From contig CAWAOD010000005.1 in the NCBI GenBank assembly GCA_963783575.1, positions 64,001-128,000 on the forward strand: DNA of 64,000 nt, given 5' to 3'. Position 1 is the first letter of the stretch. The number at the start of each line of letters is the position of its first letter. Both the position numbers and the translations under genes were made by a program. Below, piece after piece: positions 1,096-9,550 of this stretch. Under the pieces are notes generated by a model. That model ran no database searches. It was not told the origin of the DNA and saw nothing but the letters and a program-made list of their open reading frames with translations. This DNA is from an uncultured Spirochaetota bacterium. Lineage in GTDB: Bacteria > Spirochaetota > Brevinematia > Brevinematales > JAOACQ01.

Positions 1096-2938
1096 ATGAT
1101 ATTTATGTTTGACATAAATAACTTCAAAACAAAAAAACAATACTCCAAAAGATATGAAAAACGGCTTGAAAAATTAGATTTTAATACAGCTTGTATAGAA
1201 GAAGCTGTCATAGGTGCTGTTACAAATCTTAATAATGCTGTAAAATCATTCATAATATATGGTGAGCCTCAAAGTGGAAAAACGGAAATGATGATTGCTT
1301 TGACTGCAAAATTGCTCGACTTAGGTCACAAAATTGTTATAATTTTGTTGAATGACAATGTTGGATTACTTGAACAAAATCTTCGTCGCTTTGCAAAATC
1401 AGAACTTGATCCTGATCCAAAAAATTTTAAAGAAATATTGGATGATATTATGGAAATAAATGATTATGAATGGATTATTTTTTGTAAGAAAAATGCATCG
1501 GACTTGACCAAACTTATACGTAAATTAGAGGGACACAGTAATAGAGTTATTATAGATGACGAGGCTGATTATGCAAGTCCTAATAGTAAAATTAATCAAA
1601 ATGAAAAAACAAAAATAAACGATCTTGTTGGCCAACTATTGCTTGATGGGATTTATATAGGTGTAACAGCCACTCCAGCCAGATTAGATTTAAATAATAC
1701 ATTTGAAAATGCTAATGATCGATGGGTTCATTTTCCTCCACATTCAAATTATACAGGACAAGATGTATTTTTCCCTTTAGACCTTCAACAACCTAAATAT
1801 AAGTTAAATATCTTACCTCCTGATTATGATGATCCAAAACATTTACGTGAAGCATTGTTTCGGTTTATGATTAATGTAGCTTATTTAAACTTATATGTGA
1901 ATAAGCAAAATGATAACTTTTCTATGCTAATTCATACCAGTGGGCGTAAAAATGATCATTTGAAAGATCAAAATGCTATTTTATCAATATGGAATATTCT
2001 GAAAGATCAAAACCAATTTGAAAAATATGTTAAACAAATATGGGAAATAGCAAAAAAACAATATGATGAGATAAAAGCTGATGAGACGGTAAAATTTATT
2101 ATAGAAAATAGAAATAAAAACAAAGTACTTGTAATAAATAGTGAAAAAGACAAAGATAATCTTGAAAAAACTACAAATCCAATCGCTCTTTTTACAATAG
2201 GAATAGGTGGGAATATTGTTTCTAGAGGAGTAACATTTAATAATTTGCTTTCAATGTATTTTACAAGAGATGTCAAATCAAAGATTCAGCAAGATACTTA
2301 TATACAAAAGAGCCCGAATGTTTGGTAACCGCGGCAAATATTTATCATTTTTTGAATTATCAATTCCGGAACAATTATATCTTGATTGGCAAAAATGTTT
2401 TGCTTTTCATAAGTTGGCTTTAGATTCCGTAAAAAATGGGAATCCTCCAGTATGGCTTGAAGATAACCGGGTTAAAGCAACAGCTTCATCAAGTATAGCT
2501 AAAACAACCATCGAAATGAATAGCGGAGAAATGAGTTTTGAAGTATTTAATTATAAATCAGAGATTAATCAAATAATTAACCAATCTATAAAACCAATCG
2601 AAAAATTATATAGATTACAGTCTTTACTTGGAATGAATGTACTTCCTAACCATTTAATAAATTTTATAACTAATTTCAGCCCTGATGGTTCAGATTCACT
2701 TGCTATTCATGAAAGTACGGATATATCCAACCGTAAAGATGACACAAATAAAGTGAGTATCTATCGTGCTAAAGGATTGATAGGTACTAATGAAAGGGAG
2801 GAAAAGAAATATCCACATGCAATTCACCACATAAAAATTTTTTATAATAAAGATAATTTAAATGCTCGAGTTTTTTACAGGTTTAACGGTAGTATCAAAT
2901 TCTTGAAAAACACGAGGAAAAATGCTCAAACAAAGTGA
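1096..2938 (+). pseudogene. SF2 helicase-like ATPase plus Z1-domain protein, split by a +1 frameshift near 2305-2310
   Basis: Walker A GEPQSGKT, Walker B IIDDEAD, TATP, SMLIHTS and GGNIVSRGVTF; the Z1-type motif DTYIQ|RARMFGNR is split between ORFs 1096..2328 and 2270..2938. Confidence 0.75.
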
Positions 2939-3368
2939 TTTTTTTCATGGAGTTTTACTATCAAAACTCCTGGACCATACTGAATTGAACGTAAAAAAAC
3001 ATGATTATTTTTCTGCTTATATTATTAATAACAAGTCATTTTATATTAAATATTCTACAAGCAGAATATCACCCTGGACTTTTTCCTTTTCTGAAAGCCA
3101 TATTGCTGAGCTAGTAAATCTTTCAGAACAGTATGAGCAGATATATGTTGTGTTAATATGTAATGAAGATGGTATTTGTTGCTTAAATTTCATTGAATTT
3201 AAAACAGCTATAGCAATTGAAAATATGAATTTTCCTAAGTGGATAAAGGCTATACGGCAAAAAGGTGAAAAGTACTCAATTACGGGGTCTGACGGTAAAT
3301 TATTACACAAAATTGGTGACAGTTGCTTACAACAATCCATACTGAATAATGGAGAAAATAATGAATGA
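2922..3368 (+). CDS. Hypothetical protein (148 aa) in putative defence operon; possible nuclease-fold/specificity subunit
   Basis: Overlaps both neighbours (operon-like); YIKYS motif; function not recognised. Confidence 0.6.
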   Translation: MLKQSDFFHGVLLSKLLDHTELNVKKHDYFSAYIINNKSFYIKYSTSRISPWTFSFSESHIAELVNLSEQYEQIYVVLICNEDGICCLNFIEFKTAIAIENMNFPKWIKAIRQKGEKYSITGSDGKLLHKIGDSCLQQSILNNGENNE

Positions 3369-4623
3369 AATCACTAATCTATATAAAACTAATTTTGAAT
3401 CAATAAAAGCTGATGGATTTTGGAATATTGGAGCTGGAAAAGAACAAAAGATGCATCACATTCATACTTACCCAGCAAAATTTCCAGCATTTATCACATC
3501 AAAAGCGCTTTATTTTGCGCAGCAAAATAATATTAATGTAGCAAGAATAGCAGATGTATTTTGCGGGTGTGGGACAGTAGCTTATGAATCAAAACGAAAC
3601 AATATTCCTTTTTGGGGGTGTGATATAAACCCTGTTGCTACATTAGTTGCTAAAACAAAAAGCTGTAATTATAAACAACGATATTTAAATAATTATTATC
3701 AATCTATACTTAAGGAGTTTAATTCCGTTGTGCAAACTAACATTGAATACGATGTTGATGAACGATTAGGTTATTGGTATGATAATAACAATTATAAAGA
3801 GCTTTTAGTTTTAAAAAATGCCATCGAAAACAATATTCCACTTGGCAGTAGTTATAGATTTTTTTTTCTTTGCGCATTTTCAAATATTCTAAAAGCAACC
3901 TCACGCTGGTTAACAAAATCGATAAAGCCTCAAATTGATCCAAATAAAAAGCCAGCAAATGTAATTTCTGCGTTTCAAGAACAATGTAAATTTATGATGG
4001 CTGCATATATTGAAAATAGCTGTATAAAAAATGTAAAAACTGAAATAGTAACTGGTAGTTTCCTTAAAGAATCTATTAAACCACCAATTGTTGATATGAT
4101 TATTACAAGCCCTCCTTATGTAACATCATATGAATATGCGGATTTACATCAATTATCAACTTTATGGCTTGGATATTCAAATGATTATAGAAAATTTAGA
4201 GAAGGTTCTATTGGAAGCCTTTACCATATTTATGATTTTGATAAAGAATTAGATCAATTAAATTTAACTGGGAAAAAAATTGTTTCCGAATTACTTAATA
4301 AGCAAAAATCTAAAGCACGTTCTGTAGCAAAATACTTCTTAGATATGCAATCTGTTACAAAAAAATGCTATAATATGATCTCAATAGGTGGTATTGCAAT
4401 TTTTGTGATTGGGAATACTGAATATAAGGGAGTAAGAATTAATAATGTAAAACATCTTGCAGAGTCACTGAAAAATAGTGGTTTTAATAGACTTTTTGTT
4501 ACAAAAAGAAAAGTCCGGCAAAAGATACTTACACCATATCGCAATCTATTAGGGCGTTTTTCTACCGATAGTACAAATAGAAAAGTTTATAGCGAAGAAT
4601 TTATTTTAATTGGAATCAAATAA
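3349..4623 (+). CDS. DNA amino-methyltransferase, likely N4-cytosine (start may be 3361)
   Basis: HTYPAKFP, SAM-binding DVFCGCGT and catalytic ITSPPY. Confidence 0.85.
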   Translation: MEKIMNEITNLYKTNFESIKADGFWNIGAGKEQKMHHIHTYPAKFPAFITSKALYFAQQNNINVARIADVFCGCGTVAYESKRNNIPFWGCDINPVATLVAKTKSCNYKQRYLNNYYQSILKEFNSVVQTNIEYDVDERLGYWYDNNNYKELLVLKNAIENNIPLGSSYRFFFLCAFSNILKATSRWLTKSIKPQIDPNKKPANVISAFQEQCKFMMAAYIENSCIKNVKTEIVTGSFLKESIKPPIVDMIITSPPYVTSYEYADLHQLSTLWLGYSNDYRKFREGSIGSLYHIYDFDKELDQLNLTGKKIVSELLNKQKSKARSVAKYFLDMQSVTKKCYNMISIGGIAIFVIGNTEYKGVRINNVKHLAESLKNSGFNRLFVTKRKVRQKILTPYRNLLGRFSTDSTNRKVYSEEFILIGIK

Positions 4624-4813
4624 TACTTGTAATTTTAAATGCCTTGTAACTTTTTATTTTCTGTACGACTCGATATAAAGTCAGTTGTTATTCCTGTTTG
4701 ACATGATCTGAACAAGCTAGAGGGTTTCATACAGGGATGTATGAAACCAAGGAATCAGTTTGAGCCTGTCGTATTATAGGCGTCAGCCTGTATCGAAGTA
4801 ACCATAAACAAGA

Positions 4814-5211
4814 CGCTACTCAGTAACCGAAAAAGCCTTTATGCCGTATCTTTTTCGCGAGAGCCGGTAAATCAGTGTATCTTCCTTCGATTAAAGCTAT
4901 TTTCTTCTTTTTGCTATTCCCGGTTTGGATTCTAAAAGGACCTTATTTCCTCTCAAAGAATCTAACTTCTCACAAAAAGAGCCGGTTCCGGTTCTTTGTG
5001 AGGGAACTTTTCTTCCCGGAGTGGAAATATTCCCTCTGTGAAAGGAAATATTTAATCTCAAAGCAGGAATGTTCCCGCTAAAAGAGGGAACATTCCTTTT
5101 CCCGAAGGTAATTTTTCTTCCCGGAACACCAATGTTCCCCTTGAGAGAGGAAATATTGCTTCTTTAAGAACCAAGAATTGACCATGTTAAACATCCGCTA
5201 CTCAGTGACCG
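4814..5211. repeat. 16-bp direct repeats (4814-4829, 5196-5211) enclosing eight degenerate 21-bp tandem units (5002-5169)
   Basis: cgctactcagt(a/g)accg twice; GGAAAT-like unit starts at 5002, 5023, 5044, 5065, 5086, 5107, 5128 and 5149. Confidence 0.7.
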
Positions 5212-5254
5212 CAGCCTTCTTAATCGCCCCCCGTCTATGATAAAAGTAAAGAGT

Positions 5255-6325
5255 TTAAGCGGCTTTTTTTAAGAAATTATTGTACTCACACATTTTGCTT
5301 TCATAACACTTCTTATCAATGTAGTAAAACAACTCTTTCTTTTTAAGCATATGATAAATAGCTACCATGACTTTTCTTGCTAATGCAACCCTGACTTTGC
5401 CTTTTGACTTACCTTTACTTTTCTTTTCATAAAAATAATTAAATTTCTTACAATCCCGAAAGTGTTGAATGCTCTGGATTAATAACTCCATCGTTAAACG
5501 TCTTGACTTCTTATTAAGCTTTCCGATTTTCGTCATTTTATTCGAGGAATCCACTTTTGGAGCCGATCTCAGATAAGAACAAAAGTCTTTTACACTGTTA
5601 AAACGGTTAATATCAGCCACATCCGACATTATTCCTATCGCGGTAAATGGACTAATGCCTTTTATACTCATTAGTAATTTTATTTCCTCTTTGAATATCT
5701 TGCCTTTTACCAAGATCTCTTTCTTTATTTCATTAGCACTGTTAATCATTTCTTCCATCTGCTTGTACAATAGATTTATCTCAAATTTTACAGTTTCGCT
5801 TAAATCAAGCTGAAGAATTTGTTCTTTTGTACCTTTAACATTCAGGCTTTCCCGTTCCTGTTTGTAACCGTTCTGCTTTAATAATGAATGAATCCTGTTT
5901 TTCATTCTGACAATATCCGTCTTAAAAAGCTTATATGTTGTAAATAGCCCGCGGATTTCCCTTACTTCCAAATTAGGTATATAAATGGTATGTAAAGGTT
6001 CTCCGGTAATTACACTATATTTAAGCATTCTTACAATACTGATAGCGTCCCTCTTATTTGTCTTGACCATTGAGTTTGAAACCAATTGGAATTTACCGGG
6101 ATTGATTACATAACATTCTGCGATAAGAGGTTTAACCTGGTCATAAAACCAGAATGTGTTTGTTGATGCTTCTACTGCAATGTAATCATCTTTTGTTAAC
6201 CGGTTTAAAAACTTTTCAAAATACTTTGGCTCAAGGCTCGATCTGAATATCCTCGGTTCAGTTTCATTATCCCCAAGAATCGCAACCTTCAGATTATCCG
6301 AATGCAAATCAACTCCGTAATACAT
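5255..6325 (-). CDS. IS110-family recombinase/transposase
   Basis: N-terminal GVDLH...AVEAST...KTNKRDA RuvC-like domain; C-terminal SIKGIS...RF..P...SS domain. Confidence 0.92.
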   Translation of the reverse strand: MYYGVDLHSDNLKVAILGDNETEPRIFRSSLEPKYFEKFLNRLTKDDYIAVEASTNTFWFYDQVKPLIAECYVINPGKFQLVSNSMVKTNKRDAISIVRMLKYSVITGEPLHTIYIPNLEVREIRGLFTTYKLFKTDIVRMKNRIHSLLKQNGYKQERESLNVKGTKEQILQLDLSETVKFEINLLYKQMEEMINSANEIKKEILVKGKIFKEEIKLLMSIKGISPFTAIGIMSDVADINRFNSVKDFCSYLRSAPKVDSSNKMTKIGKLNKKSRRLTMELLIQSIQHFRDCKKFNYFYEKKSKGKSKGKVRVALARKVMVAIYHMLKKKELFYYIDKKCYESKMCEYNNFLKKAA

Positions 6326-6379
6326 TTGACACTCTCCTTCTTATGTTTTAGAATACTTAAGAAGAAATATAAAAAAGTC

Positions 6380-6630
6380 ACCTTGACGGGCTGAGTAATG
6401 GCAGCCATCCGTCTATTCGGGTTCAGGAGCTTTGCTCCGGTCCCATAATGTTGGTAAGGAAGAAGGCTGGACTATTCGCAGCTTCGGGCTTTATTCGGTA
6501 TTCTCAAAAAGAATCCCGTTATATCCCAGGGGAGCAGCCAGCCTTCTTCTGCCTTTTTATACCCATCTTGAGTATATCCGGGCAGAGTTTAATACCATCT
6601 CCCTCACCTGTCAAAATTTCTTTTTTTATT
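6380..6630 (-). ncRNA. Candidate bridge/seek RNA in the IS110 upstream non-coding region
   Basis: 12-bp stem 6459-6470/6538-6549; two parallel CCCGAA-N4-CG motifs whose N4-CG match the target flank and the donor junction. Confidence 0.6.
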
Positions 6631-6936
6631 TCCTCATTTTATCATAACATCGCAGCATGAACGCCATTTCTGATTGAGCTTTTATCAAACTTTAATAGAA
6701 CTTAGTATTACAATTGTTGTTATTCCCCTTTAATGATCAATCGATCTGTTCGTATTTCGCAGCCAGGACGGCTGCGACCCGAACGCAGCAGGACTGCAGA
6801 GTGAGGCTCTTTAATAATGAGAAAATCTTTAATAAAACCTGGAATAACAACACCTCAGGACTTAAAGACTGCTTTTCATGAAATGGCGTTAATGCGTAGG
6901 GGCGATTCTTTCTTGGCACACCTTCTTTCTGATCGC

Positions 6937-8664
6937 TTGTCTGTCGAAAAACCTTTAAAAAAGATAAAGCGATTCTTTTACATTCGTATATCAAAATTAA
7001 ATTTTTGAATAGCCGAAAATTAGTCTCTTATACAATTTTCTTTGCTTAAATTACATCATTATACTCCTGTATTCTTTTACTATCATCCTCATATGCTCAA
7101 CCTTTTGTAGGCTATTGCCTGTAAATACTTGTTCAAATTATGAGCTATGGAATTCCAAAGCCAGTCCATTCCTACTTTATCTTTTCCTCGATAAAATGTC
7201 TGGGAAAAATCTTTCTGTGTTTTTAGATTAGCAAAATTATGTTCTTTTCCAATTCTCTTGCAGTATATCTTTTGTCCTTTATCGTTTCTCAATTTGTTCA
7301 GATAACAGTCTACTTCTTTCCTGTTTTCTAACTCAAACAAATTGAAATTCACAGTCTTTTGGTTTCTTTTTGAGTTTATTTTCGCATAACATTCCTGATA
7401 AATTTTGCACCCCTTACATTGTGATCGGTTATAGAAAAAGTGGATTTTCCCTCTTTTATCATCCCTATATCCTTTTGTAATTATTCCGCCGCCGCATTTT
7501 AACAGGTAATTACCGCTACCTTCTTCTTTTATAATCTCAAAATTCTTCCTCTTTTGCACCTCTTTCCCAAAATCTTTTTCCTTTACATCAATATAACAAT
7601 CCAATCCTTTTTCTTCCATTTCCAGTATGTCAGGCATATTCTGAAATCCTGAGTCCAGTAAATATTTACTTCCCTTATCTACTCCCAATTTAGATTTCAA
7701 TTCTTCAACTTTTGTGATCATCGGTTTTGCGCTATACTTCTCATGAAGTTTTTCATTTTCACAACTTAATATGATATCATTATTACTGATCATCATTCGA
7801 ATATTATACCCCTGTATGAACCCGCTCTTATCTGAACCCTGGGTCAATGAGCTGTCCGGGACTGTCAGATTATAATGATCTTCACCCATAATAGTTGTAT
7901 CTCCGTCTTTCAATGTTTCATTTTCTAGCATCCCTTTATAAGTTTCCACCTGTTTGATCACACTGTTATATATCTTTTTTTGACGTTCGATCCTTTTCTT
8001 TTCCGCCTCATATTTCTCCGGTTCTAACTCCCCGCGATTGAGTTTCTCATCAGTATCCAAACCCCTCTGAATAATTTTTGATGCCATTTTACGGTAGGTC
8101 TTCAAAGTCTTTTCCGCTTTCTCCCTGTTCATTGTTTTGGATTTTGATGCATTTGCTTTTATTTTGGTCCCATCCCCAACAACTATATCCCAATCGATCT
8201 CTCCTATATTGTTCAATAAATACAATATTAAGGAAAAGAGTTTTTCAATTTCTTCACGGAACTGGATTTTGAAATTACAAAGTTTGGAGTGATCAATACT
8301 CAAACGGTTGGAAACATACATAAAACCTACATGACTTTTGAGAAGGTTTTCAACTTTTCTACTTGATCTAATCCCCATCAGATAACCGTATATGATCGCT
8401 GAGATAATATCTTGAGGATGTTTTCCTTTTCGCCCTGTTTTATCATTGAAATAATATTCATCGAAATTTTTCATGTCAATATATTTAGCCACAAATTCTT
8501 TGACCATGGTTTCCCGGCTGTCTTCTACATATTGATCATTGAAGTTGATTGTGATAAACTCGCCCTGCTCCAGATTTCCCCTCGTATATCTTGCCATAAA
8601 TATTAACCTCATTTTATTTTGCAACTAACTATTATAACATATTTTTGAGTTTTTCGACAGACAA
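6937..8664 (-). mobile_element. IS1182-family element, copy 1
   Basis: 15-bp terminal IR TTGTCTGTCGAAAAA; 4-bp target duplication TCGC (6933-6936 and 8665-8668). Confidence 0.92.
7089..8597 (-). CDS. IS1182-family DDE transposase (start probably 8597, MARY...)
   Basis: GRKGKHP..IIYGY..GIRSSR, DGTKIKANAS, GYN, DSGF and EHNFANLK motifs; start chosen by alignment with copy 2. Confidence 0.9.
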   Translation of the reverse strand: MARYTRGNLEQGEFITINFNDQYVEDSRETMVKEFVAKYIDMKNFDEYYFNDKTGRKGKHPQDIISAIIYGYLMGIRSSRKVENLLKSHVGFMYVSNRLSIDHSKLCNFKIQFREEIEKLFSLILYLLNNIGEIDWDIVVGDGTKIKANASKSKTMNREKAEKTLKTYRKMASKIIQRGLDTDEKLNRGELEPEKYEAEKKRIERQKKIYNSVIKQVETYKGMLENETLKDGDTTIMGEDHYNLTVPDSSLTQGSDKSGFIQGYNIRMMISNNDIILSCENEKLHEKYSAKPMITKVEELKSKLGVDKGSKYLLDSGFQNMPDILEMEEKGLDCYIDVKEKDFGKEVQKRKNFEIIKEEGSGNYLLKCGGGIITKGYRDDKRGKIHFFYNRSQCKGCKIYQECYAKINSKRNQKTVNFNLFELENRKEVDCYLNKLRNDKGQKIYCKRIGKEHNFANLKTQKDFSQTFYRGKDKVGMDWLWNSIAHNLNKYLQAIAYKRLSI

Positions 8665-8689
8665 TCGCTCAGAAAGAAGGTGTGAAAGC

Positions 8690-8781
8690 AACATTAGGAG
8701 CAGGATGCTCCATGAAGATTTTTTCAATTACCACAATCCAATGCAGTACGATAGTACTGCTGGCGACACGATGTCGCACGG
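8690..8781. repeat. Palindromic element copy B (homologous to 628-720)
   Basis: Same order of GGA-loop hairpin, 7-bp hairpin and CGACACGATGTYGYACGG, with compensatory stem changes. Confidence 0.6.
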
Positions 8782-8922
8782 CTTTACGGCAATAATACCT
8801 ATAATTTGACATCCCCATATTTTTAAATTAAATTATCAATACATAAAAGTTCTATCATTGTTATAAAAAATAATAATCAAGCTTATTCGAGACTCCATAA
8901 CATTTGTTAAAAGAGTAATTTT

Positions 8923-9550
8923 ATGAAAAAGATTATAGAAATTCTGGTTTCATTAATTATCATATTTACTATAAAGATTGGTTATTGCAAGACGGATTAT
9001 AAGGGCTTTATCAGTGAGGCGCCGGAGTCTCAGAATAACCGAATACATCAAAGTTATGCTGAAATCTTCGGATTATTTTACAAATTACCGTAATTATATC
9101 GAAACAAATGGATTAATATTTGACGGTACTTATGATTATATAATAAAAGATTTGTCGGTAAATAATGATTTTGCAAATTTAATTCTGAATACGCCATACC
9201 GGGGAATTCCCATTTTTTTTGAGGATTTTAAATTATTTTCAAAAATATATTCTTATTATATTTTTTACCGGCAGCTTCAGGGTAAATCCGAAGATGATTA
9301 TATTAAAAATCTGGATTTGCTTTTAATGAAATACCGTGACAGACGCAAGCAGGTTAAAACCGGCAGCGATGAGATTCGGCAGATTGACAGGGGAATAAGT
9401 TCTTTTGTTTTATTGAAAAAGAGAATGGAAGAATATAAAAATTTAAAGCGGTCCATAAAAAAGAAAGATCTGGACGCTGTGACAGCCCATGAACCTGAAT
9501 TGACAGAGATTTATCAAAGGATTATTATCACGGATGATAAAGAGCAGTGA
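8923..9550 (+). CDS. Hypothetical exported protein, probably frameshifted near 9010-9050
   Basis: ATG 8923 gives a signal-peptide-like MKKIIEILVSLIIIFTIKIGYC in a different frame from the ORF 8978..9550 body. Confidence 0.45.

Follow-up and report, generated by a model that had tools for sequence, protein, structure and literature searches.

A predicted upstream two-loop bridge RNA in an IS110-family insertion sequence of an uncultured Spirochaetota bacterium

The insertion sequence and its recombinase

The window analyzed here is a 64,000-nucleotide stretch of contig CAWAOD010000005.1 (positions 64,001 to 128,000, forward strand) from an uncultured bacterium of the order Brevinematales (GCA_963783575.1). 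A complete IS110-family insertion sequence lies on its minus strand (Table 1). The recombinase scored 169 bits against NF033542 (cut-off 140), and the features of the family were present: a RuvC-like DEDD domain and a C-terminal Tnp domain with the catalytic serine, the aligned key positions being D6, E52, position 90, D93, and S261. The gene is preceded by a non-coding region of 325 nt, and the right end of the element lies about 20 nt past the stop codon. The length of 1,419 bp counts the left CG inside the element, following the IS1111 convention of a 7-bp left and a 3-bp right extension.

Table 1. Features of the insertion sequence and its surroundings in the window.
Feature	Position	Strand	Basis or remark
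Whole insertion sequence	5234..6652	-	1,419 bp; ends common to three genomic copies; empty repeat sites
Left CG core	6651..6652	-	Context TGCTG-CG-ATGTT
Right CG core	5232..5233	-	Context ATAGA-CG-GGGGGC; would derive from the target in our preferred reading
Left subterminal inverted repeat ATGATAAAA	6637..6645	-	7 bp from left end
Right subterminal inverted repeat TTTTATCAT	5237..5245	-	3 bp (AGA) from right end
IS110-family DEDD recombinase, 356 aa	5255..6325	-	PF01548, PF02371; alignment
Codon 90	6056..6058	-	Asn in window copy; Asp in the other two genomic copies
Target-loop closing stem, 5' arm	6538..6549	-	Fold; compensatory changes
Target-loop closing stem, 3' arm	6459..6470	-	Fold; compensatory changes
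Target loop, 5' guide	6529..6537	-	UGCUCCCC at 6536-6529; covariation
Motif CCCGAAGCTGCG	6488-6477	-	Present in the sequence
Target loop, 3' guide (N4 + core)	6477..6483	-	Covariation
Target loop, handshake-like dinucleotide	6475..6476	-	Tracks first donor bases right of core; 24/26 at first position
Donor loop, 5' guide AACAU(U)	6447..6452	-	Pairs with top strand (G)ATGTT of left end
Motif CCCGAATAGACG	6421-6410	-	Present in the sequence
Donor loop, 3' guide	6410..6416	-	5/5 in 26/26; changes in step in TAGT/TAGC variants
Donor loop, handshake-like dinucleotide	6408..6409	-	First base tracks first target base right of core; 18/24
-35 half, predicted circle-junction promoter	5245..5250	-	TTTACT here, TTGACT in most homologues; consensus match only
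-10 half (TATGAT), predicted junction promoter	6641..6646	-	17 bp from -35 in circle; consensus match only
Promoter-like TTGACA-17-TAAACT inside left end	6586..6614	-	Consensus match only
Antisense promoter-like TTGACA-17-TAGAAT at recombinase start	6326..6354	+	Points into guide region; consensus match only
Host repeat, ~260 bp, inverted terminal arms	6653..6902	-	Element in arm GCTG-CG-GGGRGC, last bases continue at 5231-5226
Flanks of one genomic copy			ATGCTG-CG..CG-GGGGGCGA
Flanks of second genomic copy			CTGCTG-CG..CG-GGGGGCAG
Flanks of third genomic copy			AAGTTG-CG..CG-GGGAGCAA

Three full copies of the element were found in the host genome, with identical 325-nt upstream regions and different flanks. 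The ends could be fixed because two further copies carry the same ends in different flanks and because 31 empty sites hold a single dinucleotide at this place, CG in 30 of them. All three insertions are at the oriented target G(C/T)TG-CG-GGG(G/A)GC, with one core dinucleotide and no true duplication. The inverted repeat of the window element is perfect over 9 bp and has the 7/3-bp end geometry. A 9-mer pattern search of five genomes stayed at background level and yielded no extra copies, and Rfam gave no match over positions 4000-9000. A contig from a DNA run joining position 5231 to 6651, with 1,419 bases skipped, was discarded; its 27-base side was 80% alike and may represent another copy of the repeat.

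Position 90 is the third residue of the DEDD tetrad, and it is Asp in the other 29 rows of the recombinase alignment. Because Asn replaces this residue, the recombinase of the window copy is probably catalytically impaired; mutation of D102 in IS621 abolished recombination (PMC11208158). The window copy would probably rely on recombinase supplied by the two Asp90 copies, C13 and C16. A PDB sequence search returned weak matches alone (E 0.02 and 0.51). No relative was found in viral contigs, where the donor-loop pattern gave one match without the rest of the layout. The four named genome matches of the homologue search were Spirochaetota records.

The target site

The original prediction had taken GCTG-CG for the chromosomal flank plus core at the left end. 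The match itself was confirmed, but the flank belongs to a dispersed repeat and not to unique chromosome. The target-side arm pattern of this repeat occurs at 33 genomic sites (31 empty, 2 occupied), and the third element copy, on contig C16, sits outside it. In the copies listed, the other arm of the repeat does not carry the target sequence. Exact guide-predicted sites, GCTGCGGGG(A/G)GC, number nine in the genome, all of them inside the repeat. Eight matches to the repeat were found in a genome of the same genus and one 22-base match in another genome, while it was absent from the other 28 relatives searched.

From its inverted arms, we infer that the host repeat is MITE-like. An autonomous partner of the repeat was not found; the two long spans carry other transposase-like genes. 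Rfam returned nothing credible over two loci with the repeat, and an integron attC reading of it was ruled out by the length (~260 bp) and the mixed orientations. About 190 bp from the repeat, the window encodes a transposase with DUF772 and DDE_Tnp_1_6 domains (7089-8624, minus), which we take to be IS1182-like. The motif CGCTACTCAGT(A/G)ACCG is repeated at 4814-4829 and 5196-5211 and adjoins several host-repeat copies; similar REP-like words stand beside many of the homologue insertions. In an AT-rich tract at positions 4925-5174 of the window, direct and inverted repeats are nested, with a spacing of 105 bp.

Guide matches in the non-coding region

All motifs named in the original prediction were found on the minus strand where it had placed them, including AACAT (6452-6448), CCCC (6532-6529), and the 12-bp stem (6549-6538/6470-6459). 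The stem was recovered at these positions in the fold and carries compensatory changes. The proposed match of TAGA-CG to the right end plus core proved correct and extends to 7 nt, ATAGACG. The weak CCCC match is indeed a target-side guide, but its extent had been underestimated: the guide is the 8-nt UGCUCCCC, whose pairing partner is G-GGGRGCR on the top strand, to the right of the core, where U can pair with either A or G. It fits the flank of the C16 copy at 8/8 and that of the window copy at 6/8 plus two wobbles. Along the RNA, the guides follow the order right-target, left-target, right-donor, left-donor.

When the 325-nt region was shuffled 5,000 times with its dinucleotides preserved, GCTGCG arose by chance in 2.4%, ATAGACG in 1.3%, and both together in 0.04%. 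AACAT alone arose in 24% and CCCC alone in 80% of the same shuffles; being so common, these two matches are uninformative by themselves, and their role as guides is established solely through covariation among the homologues. The guide region has a fold z of -5.3. Stem pairs with compensatory changes numbered 12 of 22, and the closing stem shows such changes in a 14-sequence subset picked for clean alignment. An inverted pair, TTGACAGG and CCCGTCAA (6614-6607 and 6390-6383, minus), encloses both loops and is kept in the nearer homologues.

Covariation across homologues

The DNA of 40 loci (L021-L060) was fetched through relatives of the recombinase, and 33 of them could be parsed; six were dropped for a truncated or interrupted upstream region (L034, L040, L050, L052, L055, L058) and one for a missing target loop (L041). 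Alignment columns served to locate the guides, and the left end was identified from its similarity to the right-end repeat; guide fit played no part in either. Identical guide pairs were collapsed, leaving 27 distinct pairs. The upstream region measured 214-418 nt among the 33 parsed elements. The parser searched upstream by design, but the right end lies 18-84 nt past the aligned protein end in the 31 elements having one; thus, the homologues lack a long downstream region. Inverted repeats with at least 8 of 12 matches were present in 29/31 elements.

Each guide fitted its own element better than those of the others. The N4 guide matched its own left flank at 3.63 of 4 positions, as compared with 1.13 for non-cognate flanks (27 distinct pairs), and the target 5' guide matched its own right flank at 5.21 of 7, as compared with 1.86 (n = 24). 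Margins were smaller for the donor guides because the donor is less variable: 4.07 of 5 against 2.84 for the 5' guide, which bears out the predicted match of AACAT to the donor side, and 5.0 against 4.72 for the 3' guide, with 5/5 in 26/26. None of 20,000 permutations, which ignore kinship, attained any of the four scores. Controls in the IS621 order were flat (2.19 vs. 2.06 and 1.12 vs. 0.98). N4 was exact in 19 of the 27 pairs and matched at 3/4 in seven more; L056, misregistered by one base, scored 1/4 and was excluded from the handshake counts. The target 5' guide fitted poorly in L054 (1/7), L031 (2/7), and L030 (3/7). The core guide equalled the left core in 26/26 elements, GG and TG variants included. 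Unequal cores occurred in four elements only (L028, L038, L042, L053), and in all four the left core was the guide core. The two-loop bridge RNA with a CG core, as originally proposed, is therefore backed by both loops, four guides, and a core that covary with flanks and ends; homologues with the same N4 and different flanks, the observation that would have spoken against it, did not occur.

The bases following the 3' guides were also informative. In 24/26 elements, the first base after the target-loop guide is identical to the donor base immediately to the right of the core. The first base after the donor-loop guide is identical to the target base at this position in 18/24, failing in 6/24; same-partner controls gave 3/24 and 2/26. 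The second base agreed in 23/26 for the target loop (reached in 23 of 20,000 permutations), while the 9/24 found for the donor loop were not significant (1,570 of 20,000).

Several loci deserve mention. In L041 (63% identical), the target loop is absent at about 190-260, the stem arms being joined by ~11 nt with the donor loop intact, which represents either a natural deletion or an assembly collapse. L063 and L065 (genome G216) are insertions of a more distantly related element that has this layout but an AG core; the two fit the 5' guide in registers shifted by one base. L040 (G000 C9:398656-399096) is a 3' remnant of a related element with a 64% identical protein and an intact right end.

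Comparison with IS621 and with the IS1111 group

The element has much in common with IS621: an upstream two-loop RNA with the target loop before the donor loop, a dinucleotide core, a DEDD and serine recombinase, a junction promoter (predicted here), and a repeat as the target. In both, the 5' guide is 9 nt long with UGGG after it, and the 3' guide consists of five bases, the core, and two handshake bases, as in the designer template of PMC11208160. In IS621, exchange leaves these two bases paired with the opposite DNA partner, and cleavage of the top strands occurs immediately 3' of the core (PMC11208158). The differences concern polarity. In IS621 the bottom-strand guide comes first within each loop (PMC11208160), whereas the order is opposite in our element; the long arm of the target lies right of the core, and the handshake-like bases track the right side. 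The core is CG instead of CT, 9-bp inverted repeats with 7/3-bp extensions are present, and the target 5' guide covers one core base, while that of IS621 covers both.

The reversal of guide order relative to IS621, noted correctly from the outset, is already in the literature: IS1111-type seekRNAs have this order, with the top-strand complement 5' of the bottom-strand match (PMC11187229). Elements of the IS110 group (IS621, ISEc21 type) have the bottom-strand match first and inverted repeats that are absent or 2-3 bp long. Our element departs from this pattern in its 9-bp repeats and in the flat IS621-order controls, and agrees with it in the upstream non-coding region. With the IS1111 group (IS5075/IS4321, ISEc11, ISPa11) it has in common the 7-bp/3-bp terminal extensions and the CAT-AGA right end. 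The named records of IS5075 and IS4321 contain all four matches, arranged identically and located in the downstream region, together with the same ATAGA end; IS5075 likewise targets an inverted-repeat arm. ISEc21 had the opposite guide order. IS1111 inverted repeats are usually 11-13 bp long, and the long non-coding region is typically downstream of the gene, with exceptions (PMC11187229). In contrast, the RNA region lies upstream here, the right end is short, the inverted repeat is slightly shorter, and the protein is too distant for a direct tblastn match among the matches listed (60 of 1,020 from plasmids).

The locus thus combines the IS1111 order in both loops and IS1111-type ends with an RNA region upstream of the gene. 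Among the exceptions described in PMC11187229, ISHvo10 and ISAcp5 have both regions, and ISMtsp17, called there the lone exception, is an IS1111-type element with an upstream region like ours; here, the upstream position spans a clade at 28-100% protein identity. On the clade profile, a haloarchaeal protein resembling the ISH18/ISHvo10 row reached 188 bits, IS5075 62 bits, and ISEc21 4 bits; the same donor-guide motif lies upstream of the haloarchaeal protein. Trees placed the clade (100/99) on the IS5075 side with support of 87/86 and an SH-aLRT of 94, IS5075/IS4321 being the sole literature-named IS1111 references, with ISEc11 and the named IS621 protein absent from the set. The alternative grouping with IS110-type references had a p-AU of 0.218, and the phylogenetic placement of the clade is not decisive.

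Proposed mechanism

Taken together, the data make it likely, as far as sequence comparison can tell, that the locus is an IS1111-type RNA-guided element with an upstream two-loop bridge RNA, which would use the IS621 scaffold with rotated DNA and exchange the bottom strand first. By analogy with IS621 and ISEc11, the element would circularize, and the joined ends would form a promoter, from which an RNA binding the recombinase would be made. The target loop would pair with GCTG-CG-GGGRGCR in the repeat arm; at the circle junction, the donor loop would pair with ATAGA-CG-ATGTT. The element would then be inserted by serine-linked strand exchange. Even for IS621, cut-out versus copy-out movement is disputed (10.1101/2025.10.25.684509; PMC13626964). 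The further steps are proposed here: the IS621-like scaffold would hold both DNA duplexes rotated by 180 degrees, and the bottom strand, relative to gene direction, would be exchanged first with the crossover just left of the core. The rotated IS621 complex is the simplest model because the handshake-bearing 3' guides pair with the bottom strand. It implies a donor-derived left core, and the guide core equals the left core in the four unequal-core elements; the published 7-bp left extension of IS1111 assigns the left two core bases to the element.

A consensus match to the predicted junction promoter was found in 27 of the 31 elements with both ends, the -35 half being degenerate in the copies of this genome. 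The promoter-like site inside the left end, which occurs in 5/27 homologues against 0.3 expected, could drive the RNA and the gene without circularization. The outer repeat TTGACAGG doubles as the -35 of this internal site.

A simpler organization would need the target loop only: a short processed RNA would suffice, the protein would read the ends via their inverted repeats, and the donor-like loop would be dispensable. SeekRNAs of 70-100 nt sufficed for ISEc11 and ISEc21 (PMC11187229), and the authors of that work describe a short RNA without the second loop in their reply to review (PMC11187229 supplement file 2). The loops can be uncoupled, since L041 and L058 keep the donor loop without an intact target loop. 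We nevertheless consider this organization unlikely. The donor loop covaries with both ends and, via its +1 base, with the target, which implies its use in a complex holding both DNAs; transposition with the target loop only was far weaker for IS621 (10.1101/2025.10.25.684509).

Less probable still is that the guides act as described but in the IS621 strand order, top strand first and crossover right of the core, in a divergent IS110-type branch whose ends have converged on those of IS1111. The upstream non-coding region, a hallmark of the IS110 type, would fit such a branch, as would the perfect inverted repeat of 9 bp, shorter than usual for IS1111, and the AU test, which does not reject the grouping. 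However, in the guide that pairs with the bottom strand, the handshake-like bases follow positions to the right of the core, and the left cores agree with the guide. The 7/3-bp end geometry and the ATAGA end common to IS5075 also argue against this origin, as do the profile scores of IS5075 and ISEc21.

The functional guide might also be an antisense (plus-strand) RNA made from the promoter-like site at the start of the recombinase gene. This site matches 11 of 12 consensus positions, points into the guide region, and is conserved in 9/27 homologues against 0.4 expected; the antisense strand folds at least as well in 17/27 homologues, the sense fold being more stable in just 10/27, so folding energy offers no choice of strand. 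The consensus stems, however, include G-U pairs, among them a U-G pair that never varies, and these would become A-C mismatches in the antisense; guide wobbles favor the sense strand by 38 to 20 (a modest asymmetry), and the sense strand matches both the IS621 scaffold and the sense strand of IS5075. From these G-U pairs and this homology, we infer that the minus strand is the RNA strand, and an antisense guide appears very improbable. Antisense RNAs at the same position, Asr9 and Asr10, are regulatory in ISPpu9 and ISPpu10 (PMC12288879). These are IS110-group elements with measured transcripts. Like our element, they have an antisense promoter that lies where the recombinase gene begins and is directed toward the guide region, which is represented here by a conserved consensus match only.

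Chance matches in a structured 5' leader, a reading to which the two individually common short matches might lend some credit, are practically negligible and were ruled out by the guide-flank covariation, in which 21 different N4 words each fit their own flank (17 at 4/4 and 4 at 3/4).

Implications for the IS110 family

Bridge RNAs are predicted in most IS110-family elements. One more bridge RNA is therefore ordinary, and the value of the present one lies in what its clade makes legible. Both loops and the handshake-like bases can be read by covariation, leading to a specific prediction: bottom strand first, with the crossover left of the core. PMC11187229 did not settle if the guide reversal of IS1111 elements reflects another mechanism, or if these elements employ a donor loop. 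On our reading, IS1111-type elements in general would employ a complete two-loop bridge RNA, handshake bases included, built on the IS621 scaffold, the reversed order being only a 180-degree rotation of both substrates with the bottom strand exchanged first left of the core; for the group as a whole, we see the chances as evenly balanced. Neither the rotated-substrate reading nor IS1111 handshake bases were found in the accessible text of PMC11208160 and its preprint, PMC13604230, PMC13626964, 10.1101/2024.06.21.599552, or 10.64898/2026.08.14.744561, although Extended Data Fig. 10 of PMC11208160, with the guides of three IS1111 elements, may show them.

If the proposed mechanism is true, RNA position and substrate polarity changed independently, and the clade may preserve an intermediate between the IS110 and IS1111 groups. 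RNA position is weakened as a marker for sorting the family. The unusually regular twin loops would then make the scaffold compact and simple to reprogram, and its core flexible (CG, TG, GG, and AG were seen). For tool development, the clade adds guides that have been reprogrammed in nature and go with several different cores.

Neighboring genes and a second IS110-family element

A restriction-modification-like cluster with an N6/N4 methylase occupies positions 1096-4623 (plus) of the window. Its Z1/ResIII protein is apparently split over two frames near 2270-2328, and the cluster includes a 148-aa gene without a Pfam match.

A second IS110-family element was found in five copies (L087-L091; G000 C9:168.6k, C11:124.7k, C11:180.7k, C14:300.6k, and C16:218.8k). 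Its ends are of the same kind, and it too has a two-loop region upstream. Each of the five copies interrupts a ribosome-binding site, AGG-AG, which stands 5-6 nt before an ATG. The same targeting was seen in all four inspected copies, of eight, in genome G285 (L061, L062, L067, L069) and in Thiospirochaeta (L077). Our literature search found no description of ribosome-binding-site targeting by an RNA-guided element; IS900 inserts at such sites. In L087-L091, AGGAG is restored by the core together with the right end, ATAGG, and TTGACA lies upstream; the downstream gene thus keeps a binding site.
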